Origin: Octopus vulgaris
Taxonomy: Eukaryota
Direction: 5' to 3'
DNA: 64,000 nt
Assembly (NCBI GenBank): GCA_951406725.2
Contig: OX597818.1
Location: 98,022,001-98,086,000, forward strand
The notes under the pieces were generated by a model. That model did no database searches. It saw only the letters and a list, made by a program, of their open reading frames with translations, and was not told the DNA's origin. A program made the translations under genes and the position numbers. Positions 43,922 to 61,692 of this stretch are shown here, one piece after another (position 1 is the first letter of the stretch; each line of letters begins with the position of its first letter).

Positions 43922-43960
43922 CTAACATTTTCGTTGCGTCTTGCAACCTTTTCAATAGTC
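43922..43960 (-). ncRNA. Degenerate hammerhead-like motif, U3:A8 type
   Basis: CTA-TTGAAAA-G-GTTGC(AAGAC)GCAAC-GAAA-ATGTTAG. Stem II is perfect; stems I and III are imperfect. Confidence 0.45.
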
Positions 43961-44611
43961 GATGAATCTGTCCGTTATCCGAGCTAGGTTCTTTTTGTTT
44001 GTTTTTGCGCATGTGTATGGGTCAGTGTATGTGAGTGTGTTTGCATACACATGTATGTATGTATGTATGTATGTATGTATGTATGTATGTATGTATGTAT
44101 GTATGTATGTATGCATGCATGCATATATGTATGTATGCATGCGTGTGTGAGTGTATGCATGTATGTGTGTGTATATGTATATATGTCTTTCGTTTGTATG
44201 TATATATTCTGCCTGCATATTCATGTGTTTGTATATCCACGTTCGTGTGTACCTCTGTCTCTTTGTGTGTGCATGTCTGAGTGTGTCTGTGTGTGTGCAT
44301 GGCTTGTTTGCAACTATGTACTCTGTATGTATGTATGGATGCGTATCTCTTAGTGTGAACGTGTGTTTCCATGTGACCTTGTGTGAAGTGAAGTGTATGT
44401 GTATGTGTATATATGGTCATATGTTTCAGTCTTCATTTGTGAGTGTGTGTGTACTTATCTGTTCATGTAACCATGTAACCTATGTACCTATCCGTCTGTA
44501 TGTTTATCTGTTTACATTCGTATCCATATGCCTACATAGATGTGCATATATATATATATATATATATATATATATATATATATATATATATATATATATA
44601 TATATATATAT

Positions 44612-45775
44612 CGGGATGGAGTTTGGCATTGAAAAGTCTGCCAAAGCCACTTTTAAGAAAGGGAAATCGTTAAAGTCAAGTTCAATCGAATTAGATGTCA
44701 AAACAGTAATTAAGGAACTTGAGCAGGAACAAACCTATAAATATCTAGGAATAAATGAAGGCTCTGGTATCCAGCATGCAAGCATGAAAGAGAAGGTTAC
44801 GAAAGAATGTTATAGAATAGATCGAGCAATCCTGAAGTCTGAGCTGAATGCATATAATAAGGTATTAGCCATAAAATCCTTAGCAATCCCAGATGTTCTT
44901 TATAGTTTCAATGTGCTTAACTGGAATACCAGTGAAATAATGAAAATTGACAGAAAAATCCGCAAGCTACTGACTTGTAATAAGATGCACCTTCCAAAGC
45001 CAGACGTAGATCGTCCTTACCTTCTCAGAGCTCAGGGAGGACGAGGTTTGATCCAGTTTGAACTTACGTACAAAACCACCACAATCGGACTGGCCAAATA
45101 CCTTAAAGCAACCAACGATTGGATACTAAAACTTGTTGAAAAACATGAAAGACCTAAAAAACTTTACTCTATTCTGAAAGAGAGCAAATTATTCGCGACT
45201 GATCTCTTAGATACCTACCAGATTGATCAGGCTGAAGGAAATGCGCCAACTGCTGCTGTAAAGAAAATAAATTGATTGCAAAGACAAAATCGCATGAAAA
45301 ATTAGCTAGCAGATGGGAACAGAAACCTCTGCATGGCAAGTATGTGGCCCATAGCAAACAAGGTGATGTCGACCAGAAACACACGCACCAATGGTTACGA
45401 AGCTCAGGCTTAAAAGCGGAGAGTGAAGGTTTCACATTAGCTGCTCAAGACCAATGCTTATTAATCCGGAACTACCAAGCCAATGTGATGAAAAATGGAG
45501 CTGACCCAAAATGCTGATTCTGTAACGATGATATTGAAACTATAGACCACCTAATCTCAGGGTGTAAAGTCTAAGCACCTGTAGAATATGAAGCAAGACA
45601 TGACAGAGTAGGCCAGTATTTACACTGGACAATGTGTCGGCATTATAAAATCAAAACCGCTGAAAAATGGTATAAACACCATCCTGAAGCTGTAACTGAG
45701 GGAGAAAATGTGTCAATTCTATGGGACTTCCCCGTACATACATACAAAACTATAAAAGCTAATAAACCGGATATA
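44612..45775 (+). mobile_element. R4/Dong-clade non-LTR retrotransposon fragment (end of RT, CCHC finger, start of RLE endonuclease)
   Basis: [57 protein letters not shown]; stops and a frameshift. Confidence 0.92.
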
Positions 45776-45847
45776 TATATATGTATGTATATATGTATAT
45801 ATATATATATATATATATATATATATATATATATATATATATCAGTG

Positions 45848-46310
45848 CGTTAAGTAGCTTGCTTACCAACCACATGGTTCTGGGTTCAGCCCTACTGCGT
45901 TGCACCTTGGGCAAGTGTCTTCTACTATAGCCTCTGGCCGACCAAAGCCTTGTGAGTGGATTTGGCGAACGGAAACTGAAAGAAGCCCGTCGTATATATG
46001 TATATATATATATATATATATATATATATGTATGTATATATATATATATATATATATATATATATATATATGTGTGTGTGTGTGTGTGTGTGTGTGTGTG
46101 TGTATATTCTTGCGTGTCTGTGTTTGTCCCAACAACATCGCTTGACAACCGATGCTGGTGTGTTTACGTCCCCGTAACCTAGCGGTTCGGCAAAGAGACC
46201 GATAGAATAAGTACTAGGCTTACAAAGAATAAGTCCTGGGGTCGATTTGGTCGACTAAAGGCGGTGCTTCTGCTTGGCCACAGTCAAATGACTGAAACAA
46301 GTAAAAGAGT
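45848..46310 (+). mobile_element. SINE family B (left arm of an inverted pair)
   Basis: Family B homology; slightly 5'-truncated. Confidence 0.92.
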
Positions 46311-46419
46311 AAATATATAGATATATATATGTATGTATATATATATATATATATATATATATATATATATATATATATATATATATATATATATATATAC
46401 ATACATATACATATATGTA

Positions 46420-46913
46420 TTTACTCTTTTACTCTTTTACTTGTTTCAGTCATTTGACTGTGGCCATGCTGGAGCACCGCCTTTAGTCGACCAAATCGAC
46501 CCCAGGACTTATTCTTTGTAAGCCTAGTACTTATTCTATCGGTCTCTTTGCCGAACCGCTAGGTTACGGGGACGTAAACACACCAGCATCGGTTGTCAAG
46601 CGATGTTGTTGGGACAAACACAGACACGCAAGAATACACACACACACACACACACACACACACACATATATATATATATATATATATATATATATACATA
46701 CATACATACATACATACATATATATATATATATATATATATACATATATACGACGGGCTTCTTTCAGTTTCCGTTTACCAAATCCACTCACAAGGCTTTG
46801 GTCGGCCCGAGGCTATAGTAGAAAACACTTGCCAAAGGTGCAACGCAGTGGGGCTGAACCCAGAACCATGTGGTTGATAAGCAAGCTACTTAACGCACAG
46901 CCACTACTGCGCC
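46420..46913 (-). mobile_element. SINE family B (right arm of an inverted pair)
   Basis: Reverse complement of the left arm, with shared private variants. Confidence 0.92.
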
Positions 46914-46931
46914 TATATATATATATATATA

Positions 46932-59819: not shown

Positions 59820-60237
59820 TAGGCGTAGGCGTGGCTGTATGGTAAGGAGCTTGCTTAACAACCACATGGTTCCAGGTTCAGTCCCACTGCGTGGCACCTT
59901 GGGCAAGTGTCCTCTACTATAGCCCCGGGCCGACCAAAGCCTTGTGAGTGGATTTGGTAGACGGAAACTGAAAGAAGCCCGTCGTAAATATGTATATATA
60001 TATATATATGTATGTGTGTGTGCATGTGTTTGTGTGTCTGTTTTTGTCCCTCAACATCGCTTGACAACAGATGCTGGTGTGTTTACATTCCCGTAACTTA
60101 GCGGTTCGGCAAAAGAGAACGATAGACTAAGTACTAGGTTTACAAAGAATATGTCCTTGGGTCGATTTGCGTGACTAAAGGCTGTGCTCCAGCATGGGTA
60201 CAGTCAAATGACTGAAATAAGTAAAAGAGTAAAAGAA
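59820..60237 (+). mobile_element. SINE family B, full length
   Basis: Family B homology. Confidence 0.92.
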
Positions 60238-60262
60238 TATATATGTATATATGTATATATAT

Positions 60263-60955
60263 AGATGAGGAAGTTGGTTTGTGAAAGTACGTGGTTGAAT
60301 ATATAGAAAATAGTAAAAAGTGAAAAAACTACAGAAGGCTTGTTTTAAAAGGTTAAAAAATATATATTTGAGTCAATATGTCTGAAGAATATTATAAATT
60401 TTTTTCTTACAATGACATAGTTTAGAAGAAATGACCGGTTTCGCGTTTAGCTTTTCAAATTTCTTACATCGTTATGTTTATGTTGAGAAGAGTAATCGTT
60501 ATGTTCATGTTGAAAAGAGTTCTAGATAAGGGGAGGTAATAAGTGATTTCTTCCGGTGTAAGGGAGATAATCGCTTAAAATCTTTTGCCTTTCCTTTGGG
60601 GTGAATTTCTCTGTATAAGTATGTTGGAATGGTTATGTCTGGGCTTGTACTTTTCAATGAAGAATCTTTCCTTGTTTAGTCTAATTTGTGTTGGTGTTCC
60701 GATAGCACATTGGTAAAATGGAAAGATTAAAAATTGTGGCAGTAGTTGCTTTGCGCATTTCTCAATGTGCTCACTAAAAGGTATCATTCTGTATTCTGGG
60801 AATGCAATCTGTTGTCGATGCAGTGTGCATCTACGTCTGAGTGATAGTCCCGTGGATCCCACGTAGTCTTGGTGGCAGCCCGAGCATTTTATGACATAAA
60901 TTATGTTTTCAGAGGCACAAGTAAAATTAGATTTGATCTTGAATTTCTGTCATAT
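60263..60955 (-). mobile_element. 5'-truncated Penelope-like element: open GIY-YIG domain and 3' pLTR, in (TA)n
   Basis: QKFKIKSNFTCASENIIYVIKCSGCHQDYVGSTGLSLRRRCTLH..FSEHIEKCA..FLIFPFYQ..KERFFIEKYKPRHN. Confidence 0.9.
60426..60465 (-). ncRNA. Minimal type I hammerhead, U3:A8 variant
   Basis: AAGAAAT-TTGAAAA-GC(TAAAC)GC-GAAAC-CG-GTC-ATTTCTT; perfect 7-bp stem I, GUC triplet. Confidence 0.75.
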
Positions 60956-61556
60956 TATTTATATATATATATATATATATATATATATATATTCAATAAA
61001 AGATGAATATATATATATATATATATATATATATATATATATATATCAATAAAAGATGAAGTCCTAGTGAATGGTAGCATCTGCTAGCCGATACCCGAGG
61101 GGAGCTTCGGAAAGAACAGTATAATGTTATTACTCAGATAATATTAAAATACACACACACACACACACACACACACACATATATATATATATATATATAT
61201 ATATGTATAAATAATAATTTCTGTCCCTCTTTGTGTAAATACATACTTATATATGTTTGTATAAATACATACTTATGTATGTATATATATATATACATAT
61301 ATACATACACACACATAGGTATGTATATGTATATATATATATATATATATATATATATATATATATATATATATATATAAATAATAGTTATCGCCATACT
61401 AATATGGCATTCTTATAAAAATAAGAAAAAAGAAAAAAGCTGTCCGCTTATTAGCTCCATGAGGCCATCGCCTTAAGTTAGCTATTTGATACACAAACTG
61501 TATCCATATAACCTTCGAACAAGGGAGGTCAGTCGCTCCACACTACTTGACCGGCA

Positions 61557-61598
61557 GCTACAGACGCGTTTCGGGGTATTGCCCCTTTTCAATGCAGC
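61557..61598 (-). ncRNA. Minimal type I hammerhead, U3:A8 variant
   Basis: GCTGCA-TTGAAAA-GGGG(CAATA)CCCC-GAAAC-GC-GTC-TGTAGC; all three stems form. Confidence 0.82.
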
Positions 61599-61646
61599 GT
61601 AGCCAGCCAGTAGGTGTCGCTTCCGACAATCTCTGTTCGATGGTTT

Positions 61647-61692
61647 TATTTACCTAGTTTCGGTGGAATACATCCACTTGTTTTCAATAATA
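61647..61692 (-). ncRNA. Second, looser U3:A8 hammerhead-like motif in the same monomer
   Basis: TATTA-TTGAAAA-CAA-GTGGA(TGTAT)TCCAC-C-GAAAC-TAG-GTA-AATA. Confidence 0.5.

Follow-up and report, generated by a model that had tools for sequence, protein, structure and literature searches.

Predicted hammerhead ribozymes with a U3:A8 core in Penelope-like elements and a retrozyme of Octopus vulgaris

In several natural hammerhead ribozymes the core pair C3-G8 has covaried to U3-A8, and such variants are active in vitro (Perreault et al., 2011, PMC3088659). Among Penelope-like elements (PLEs), the minimal hammerheads of the Cercyon-type elements of Schistosoma mansoni carry U3-A8; a first descriptor missed them, and about 1,300 were then recovered (Cervera and De la Pena, 2014, PMC4209133). 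The supplement of that paper includes a PLE-linked motif with the core UUGAAAA, and the paper describes a dimer model with a palindromic stem III and low in vitro activity. Here we analyzed a 64,000-nt stretch of the Octopus vulgaris genome (contig OX597818.1, positions 98,022,001 to 98,086,000; “the window”), which contains three hammerhead motifs with the same UUGAAAA core. Our reading, to which we assign a probability of roughly 0.78, is that two Neptune-type PLE families (A and B) and a 361-bp retrozyme (family C) carry U3:A8 hammerheads of type I, that these would cut their RNA mainly as dimers, and that the swap probably took place several times.

The swap itself has thus already been published for PLEs (PMC4209133), and in this genome U3:A8 motifs are present in thousands of copies. 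As in the S. mansoni PLEs, the U3-A8 core occurs in PLE repeats with a palindromic stem III. The motifs of families A, B, and C differ from those of S. mansoni in that their palindrome has 4 nt, their stem I has 6–7 bp, and A9 is not followed by an extra base. They are nearer to the small-helix-III variants, a class in which U3:A8 dominates here. Where PMC3088659 gives scattered natural examples, we find families fixed in thousands of copies, along with amplified half-way states. A literature search on hammerheads with U3-A8 led only to the 2014 paper (PMC4209133). Literature searches, including one on octopus hammerheads and retrozymes, returned no description of these families or of amplified half-way states, though the supplements of PMC4209133 and of a retrozyme preprint (bioRxiv 10.64898/2026.07.22.740005) could hold more U3-A8 cases.

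Three U3:A8 hammerheads and the elements that carry them

We scanned both strands of the window with a descriptor of U3:A8 type I hammerheads. Matches with a stem I of at least 6 bp occurred in the window only at 51244-51284(+), 60426-60465(-), and 61557-61598(-), exactly where the initial annotation had placed three motifs with this layout and a 6–7-bp stem I. All three read stem I, UUGAAAA, stem II, GAAA, a 4-nt palindrome, NUH, and stem I′. In this order of coordinates, stem I has 6, 7, and 6 bp, stem II has 4, 2, and 4 bp, and the NUH triplets are CUU, GUC, and GUC. Each has the two boxes of the type I core, NUGANNA and GAAA...NUH, connected through stems I to III. Against the three observed, none was found in 200 dinucleotide shuffles (300-nt blocks), and a scan of shuffles with relaxed demands gave a mean of 0.03 and a maximum of 1. 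The UUGAAAA folds are therefore locally in excess of shuffled expectation, the comparison that the initial annotation had proposed. An Rfam scan of the window gave no hammerhead family among the best 150 of 224 matches. Judged by their sequence, the three motifs are U3:A8 hammerheads of type I, and self-cleavage is predicted for them.

The family A hammerhead lies 110 nt past a GIY-YIG endonuclease frame, 60575-60949(-), whose Pfam match is weak (E 0.002, under the curated cut-off). A search with this frame gave 16,691 candidates, of which the best 150 scored were 90–100% identical, and the 26-nt family A core has 430 exact genome copies vs 0 for the reversed control. Longer copies encode reverse transcriptase (RT) and endonuclease in a single frame of 736 aa (L059) or 655 aa (L060) with RVT_1, in which a DKG motif and a CX4CxxC linker ahead of the endonuclease were read directly. 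We examined the 30 loci with the best endonuclease matches, a choice biased toward the subfamily of the window. A hammerhead was found 75–139 nt past the open reading frame (ORF) in 29 of them, and all 29 have U3 and A8. Thus, U3:A8 is a family-level trait of A and not decay of a single copy, as had been claimed for the fixed double substitution. Opposite-strand hammerhead pairs were seen in all eight family A loci fetched for that trait, a layout typical of PLE insertions, and the family has inverted 5′-truncated copies.

These features resemble those reported for Neptune PLEs by Craig et al. (2021, PMC8557442), namely an RT, a CX2-5CxxC linker, a C-terminal GIY-YIG domain, inverted 5′-truncated copies, (TA)n targets, and a hammerhead in the 3′ repeat. 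By its motifs, the basis on which Neptune was preferred over Nematis, family A is a Neptune-type PLE. It shares this type with the element at 52.3 kb, so that the contrast initially drawn between that Neptune-like element and another group does not hold. A link to Naiad was ruled out, as the endonuclease is C-terminal.

The family B hammerhead begins about 50 nt past a broken GIY-YIG remnant that ends at 51192(+) and has no open ORF. The family is old, its main matches being 68–77% identical, and its RT and endonuclease are known only from broken pieces; in other copies these share 23–53% identity, depending on the segment, with those of family A. Among the 28 loci that could be aligned (of 29), position 3 is U in 23 and C in 5, and position 8 is A in 27 and G in one. 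In both families, then, the U3:A8 hammerhead is PLE-linked and lies directly 3′ of Neptune-type endonuclease sequence. The initial annotation had placed two motifs just 3′ of GIY-YIG ORFs; the position is right for the 60426 and 51244 motifs, while an open ORF exists only at 60575-60949 and not in the remnant ending at 51192.

The third motif is part of a different kind of element. It sits in a rearranged insertion, 61379-62479, with direct repeats spaced by about 362–369 nt plus an inverted piece. At another family C locus (L075) we found a tandem array of four hammerheads spaced 362, 361, and 360 nt, with one type I hammerhead per unit and a GC content of 40%, and the genome scan revealed further tandem arrays. 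Family C thus combines the features expected of a retrozyme, tandem units of 170–400 nt with low GC and one type I hammerhead each. The unit folds as a circle with a predicted energy of -120.8 kcal/mol, vs -80.1 +/- 5.6 for 60 doublet shuffles. As in the metazoan non-LTR (long terminal repeat) retrozymes described in PMC7229834 and bioRxiv 10.64898/2026.07.22.740005, the units are tandem (360–362 bp, compared with 350–390 bp in mussels), each has a type I hammerhead, and a self-paired circle is predicted. Family C differs from these in its U3:A8 core and in that no homology to a PLE pseudo-LTR (pLTR) was detected. On balance it fits a 361-bp tandem non-LTR retrozyme. The retrozyme unit is also covered by contigs of four sequencing runs, putatively of RNA, to which we give no weight as a sign of expression.

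Comparison of the family C unit with the 3′ ends of A, B, the 52.3-kb PLE and a further family at 43.9 kb (H) gave only chance-level matches, none longer than 15 nt. The data thus give no support to descent of family C from A or B, or to its being a pLTR derivative of either. The first placing of the third motif among the non-autonomous derivatives of a single PLE clade is likewise unsupported. The looser motif at 61647-61692(-), also proposed initially, is an internal hairpin of the family C unit and lacks the hammerhead core boxes: no stem I adjoins the core, 2–3 extra bases precede the hairpin, and GAAA is replaced by GAAG in L379/L438.

The U-A pair would substitute for the usual C-G core pair. 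A dimer form is invoked because stem III is too short for stability alone. As in the model of PMC4209133, two copies within a transcript that is tandem or contains a pLTR may exchange stem I strands while their palindromes pair into a 6-bp stem III, and RNA of unit length would be freed once each copy is cut after its NUH. When two copies were co-folded, the predicted minimum-energy structures of A and C were hammerhead dimers with exchanged stem I and a 6-bp stem III (A, -13.3 vs 2 x -3.0 kcal/mol; C, -31.9 vs 2 x -12.9 kcal/mol), so the initial proposal of dimer cleavage is plausible. Unit RNA of the retrozyme would probably circularize and then be copied by a PLE enzyme.

Table 1. Hammerhead motifs and associated elements in the window.
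Feature	Position	Strand	Details
Family B PLE remnant, linker and GIY-YIG	50700-51192	+	stops and frameshifts; start approximate; old family
Family B type I hammerhead	51244-51284	+	core 51250-51256; GCGC palindrome; CUU; predicted cut between 51278 and 51279
Minimal hammerhead of 52.3-kb PLE	51572-51609	-	C3:G8 kept, A6U; about 710 nt past the ORF
GIY-YIG end of separate, abundant Neptune-type PLE	52319-52780	-	comparison element
Family A type I hammerhead	60426-60465	-	core 60458-60452; CCGG palindrome; GUC; predicted cut between 60433 and 60432
GIY-YIG endonuclease end of 5′-truncated family A PLE	60575-60949	-	open 124-aa frame; 5′ bound is (TA)n
Family C rearranged insertion	61379-62479	-	partial tandem units plus inverted piece; (TA)n flanks; one intact hammerhead
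Family C hammerhead, canonical size	61557-61598	-	6-bp stem I; 4-bp stem II; CGCG palindrome; GUC; predicted cut between 61563 and 61562
Internal hairpin of retrozyme unit, core-like	61647-61692	-	not a hammerhead
Family H decayed minimal hammerhead	43922-43960	-	U16.1 to G; stem I of 3 bp, stem II of 5 bp; AU palindrome; A9 followed by an extra base

Covariation of positions 3 and 8 in the genome

We scanned the 2.8-Gb, microsatellite-rich genome for the four combinations of core positions 3 and 8; the counts are pattern matches of copies and not independent events. Among motifs with a CSSG stem III and GUC, U3:A8 gave 4,333 matches (reversed control, 53), C3:G8 159 (control, 211), U3·G8 165 (control, 79), and C3·A8 160 (control, 43). 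The C3:G8 control exceeds its signal and is inflated, and the listed C3:G8 matches still form a coherent tandem family. In the minimal CG-palindrome class, counted for the two paired states, there were 12,327 C3:G8 matches (control, 45) and 201 U3:A8 matches (control, 132). U3:A8 is the rule in the 4-nt-palindrome class and near background in the minimal CG-palindrome class. At least six families in the genome use U3:A8.

Mismatched cores are rare relative to U3:A8 in the CSSG class, and the 3:8 pair is Watson-Crick in 31 of the 33 loci from outside this genome in which we found a hammerhead (see below). The predicted covariation is thus seen, the Watson-Crick pair being kept as U3:A8, with amplified mismatched subfamilies as the exceptions. 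Given 4,333 U3:A8 and 159 C3:G8 matches, annotation based only on CUGANGA overlooks nearly all 4-nt-palindrome hammerheads here. The initial annotation was right to warn of this, a point already made in the 2014 paper (PMC4209133).

Retrozyme family F/G (389 matches; control, 0) contains both cores. By hand count, the first 100 of the 389 matches comprise 52 U3:A8, 42 C3:G8, 6 C3·A8, and 0 U3·G8. Subfamily trees were built with positions 3, 7, and 8 masked, from 60 of 77 collected rows for F/G and 79 of 100 for family A. In the F/G tree the C3 copies make up one side of a branch with 100/100 support; 12 C3·A8 rows are at the base of this side, adjoining the U3:A8 copies, and the C3:G8 groups branch from among them. 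The tree, which is unrooted and has a poorly supported base, fits a stepwise path U3:A8 – C3·A8 – C3:G8. Alternatively, the C3·A8 subfamily could have its source in CpG decay of G8 in a founder. Some copies of this subfamily (L421-L429, L409) are in tandem arrays.

Single origin, relics, or repeated switching

The search with family A proteins gave 644 homologues (best 120 listed), mainly from assemblies and mollusc-associated records; a search of viral contigs found no relatives. DNA of 124 outside loci of PLE relatives was fetched for a hammerhead search. A sense-strand hammerhead was detected in 33 of these: 18 have C3:G8 only, 11 have U3:A8 only, 2 have both kinds, and 2 are mismatched (one C3·A8, and one U3·G8 inside an ORF). 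Antisense matches occurred in five loci, none with a palindromic stem III. In one outside assembly (loci L287-L312), PLE families that are close relatives of one another lie in tandem, part of them with C3:G8 and others with U3:A8, an independent case of repeated core switching.

A quick RT-endonuclease tree was built from 31 of 54 rows; those dropped were near-duplicates, some proteins, and rows for which no core was called, and named reference elements were absent. On it, core type changes at least seven times, and C3:G8 is the core of the closest relatives of A in which one could be read. For topology tests we used the 26 of 54 rows with a known core, 9 of them U3:A8 and 17 others.

These results bear on the explanation first offered, in which U3:A8 was fixed a single time, in one PLE clade that would be the ancestor of every U3:A8 motif here, that of the retrozyme among them. 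Families A and B do have a common core, the same position 3′ of the endonuclease and a common wider subclade (SH-aLRT 99), and a weak 23-nt likeness occurs downstream of both hammerheads (E 0.37). A plus B as one clade was not rejected (approximately unbiased [AU] test, p 0.745), so these two may be one lineage, though the placement of B is unsure because its row is long and broken. The six or more U3:A8 families in the genome could likewise be taken to favor a single origin. Against it, a clade of all U3:A8 rows was rejected (p-AU 4e-6), the C3:G8 elements L237, L242, and L249 are placed among A and B, the core changes repeatedly on the 31-row tree, retrozyme C lacks homology to A or B, and F/G holds both cores. 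A single origin is thus improbable, and from the sequences compared U3:A8 recurs across PLE relatives rather than marking one clade. The distinctive SEH..CA C-terminus, proposed as the mark of such a lineage, was ruled out as a U3:A8 marker, as it is carried by 53 of the best 120 of 644 homologues and is also present in the C3:G8 element L249. The families described here are additional cases of the published U3:A8 PLE variant; they do not mark a single new lineage.

Several observations weigh against our reading of these motifs. Nucleotide 1.1, directly after the cut site, is missing in 16 of 21 family A sites (L001-L020), so that stem I and U3 are separated by an unpaired U. In addition, 17 U3·G8 copies form a derived clade inside family A (SH-aLRT 100); this amplified subclade (L441-L454) accounts, by hand count, for 36 exact matches among the 100 U3·G8 matches listed. 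As nucleotide 1.1 is often lost and a U3·G8 subclade has amplified, the family A ribozyme may be weak or dispensable. The minimum-energy fold of the window copy of B is not the hammerhead form, whether as monomer or as dimer. A single outside assembly supplies 14 of the 33 hammerhead loci and 9 of the 11 U3:A8-only loci. Finally, a study of a PLE hammerhead reports no reads ending at the cut site, and mutants without effect on in vitro insertion (PMC11167929).

Taken further, such observations would make these motifs relics, in which U3:A8 arose by drift toward A+T and hitchhikes in elements that no longer need cleavage. Both core changes are transitions toward A+T, U3·G8 and C3·A8 subfamilies have amplified, nucleotide 1.1 has been lost, the 52.3-kb PLE shows a family-wide A6U change, and insertion in vitro was independent of cleavage in PMC11167929. 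However, positions 3 and 8 change jointly in most families and in outside hosts, unrelated stems retain the pairing, and a hammerhead of canonical size is kept in every L075 unit of retrozyme C. We regard wholesale relics as very doubtful and favor U3:A8 type I hammerheads in which the swap probably arose several times by stepwise change, then spread by family amplification.

Between these positions, the data would tentatively suggest, at somewhat less than even odds, that a compensatory 3:8 switch has been caught half-way, with viable mismatched intermediates that transposed and a 3:8 pair that acts as a tuning knob on cleavage and not as a requirement for mobility. Because the half-swap subfamilies U3·G8 and C3·A8 were amplified, mobility probably does not depend on a perfect 3:8 pair. 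The half-way states and the loss of nucleotide 1.1 argue against an optimal ribozyme being strictly required. These results agree with the mutants described in PMC11167929, where single changes at position 3 or 8 abolished cleavage, the double mutant restored it partially, and in vitro insertion was unaffected. If this is true, the natural variants are a ready series for testing the purpose of PLE hammerheads. As the amplified subfamilies differ in their 3:8 core (paired, wobble, or mismatched) on backgrounds that are nearly identical, they would permit direct comparison of cleavage rate with mobility. The amplified intermediates, together with the A6U family, are the parts most deserving of bench study.

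The 52.3-kb element, family H and neighboring features

The initial annotation assigned a C3:G8 core to the Neptune-like PLE at 52.3 kb. This was confirmed, and its hammerhead was located at 51572-51609(-), with an additional A6U change. The resulting CUGUUGA core was present in all 19 loci with a motif inside the 900 nt examined (of 30 loci; L153-L182). A change at position 6 (A6C) is reported to reduce hammerhead activity (PMC3088659), and a literature search for the CUGUUGA core found no relevant report. Copies related to this PLE read CUGUAGA, CUGUGGA, or CUGUCGA.

The motif at 43922-43960, initially noted as a looser U3:A8 hammerhead, belongs to such a family (H), while the window copy itself is decayed by the U16.1-to-G change and lacks a complete set of core boxes. 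The family H repeat gave 2,796 candidates, with 41 matches listed. In 19 other copies, position 3 is U in 19, position 8 is A in 17, and U16.1 is present in 17, so the majority sequence is that of a minimal U3:A8 hammerhead, in which stem I has 3 bp and stem II 5 bp, one base is extra, and the palindrome is AU; it has the core boxes that the window copy lacks. This layout matches the minimal PLE motifs of PMC4209133. No ORF, RT, or endonuclease of its own was found upstream of H in 12 loci of about 8 kb. Family H loci include inverted partial copies and ends flanked by microsatellites, and H may be a PLE-derived 3′ fragment.

Family D (L069, L079, L089, L092, L229-L236) also has U3:A8. Its stem II opens with the mismatch U10.1·U11.1, inverted copy pairs occur, and no ORF was found upstream. 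Autonomous partners for H (12 loci) and D (8 loci) were not found within 6–8 kb.

Animal PLE-like sequences were also seen in records labeled as bacterial genomes or symbionts (L313-L360; P0037, P0041, P0044, P0057, P0093), where they are most likely host contamination. In the window, 44610-45853(+) contains broken frames that resemble the RT and C-terminal part of another non-LTR retrotransposon, for which a profile search gave a weak match to a domain of unknown function (DUF). Ordinary C3:G8 minimal hammerheads are located at 53696(+) and 24609(-); they represent the two families predominant among the 12,327 matches of the minimal class in the genome.

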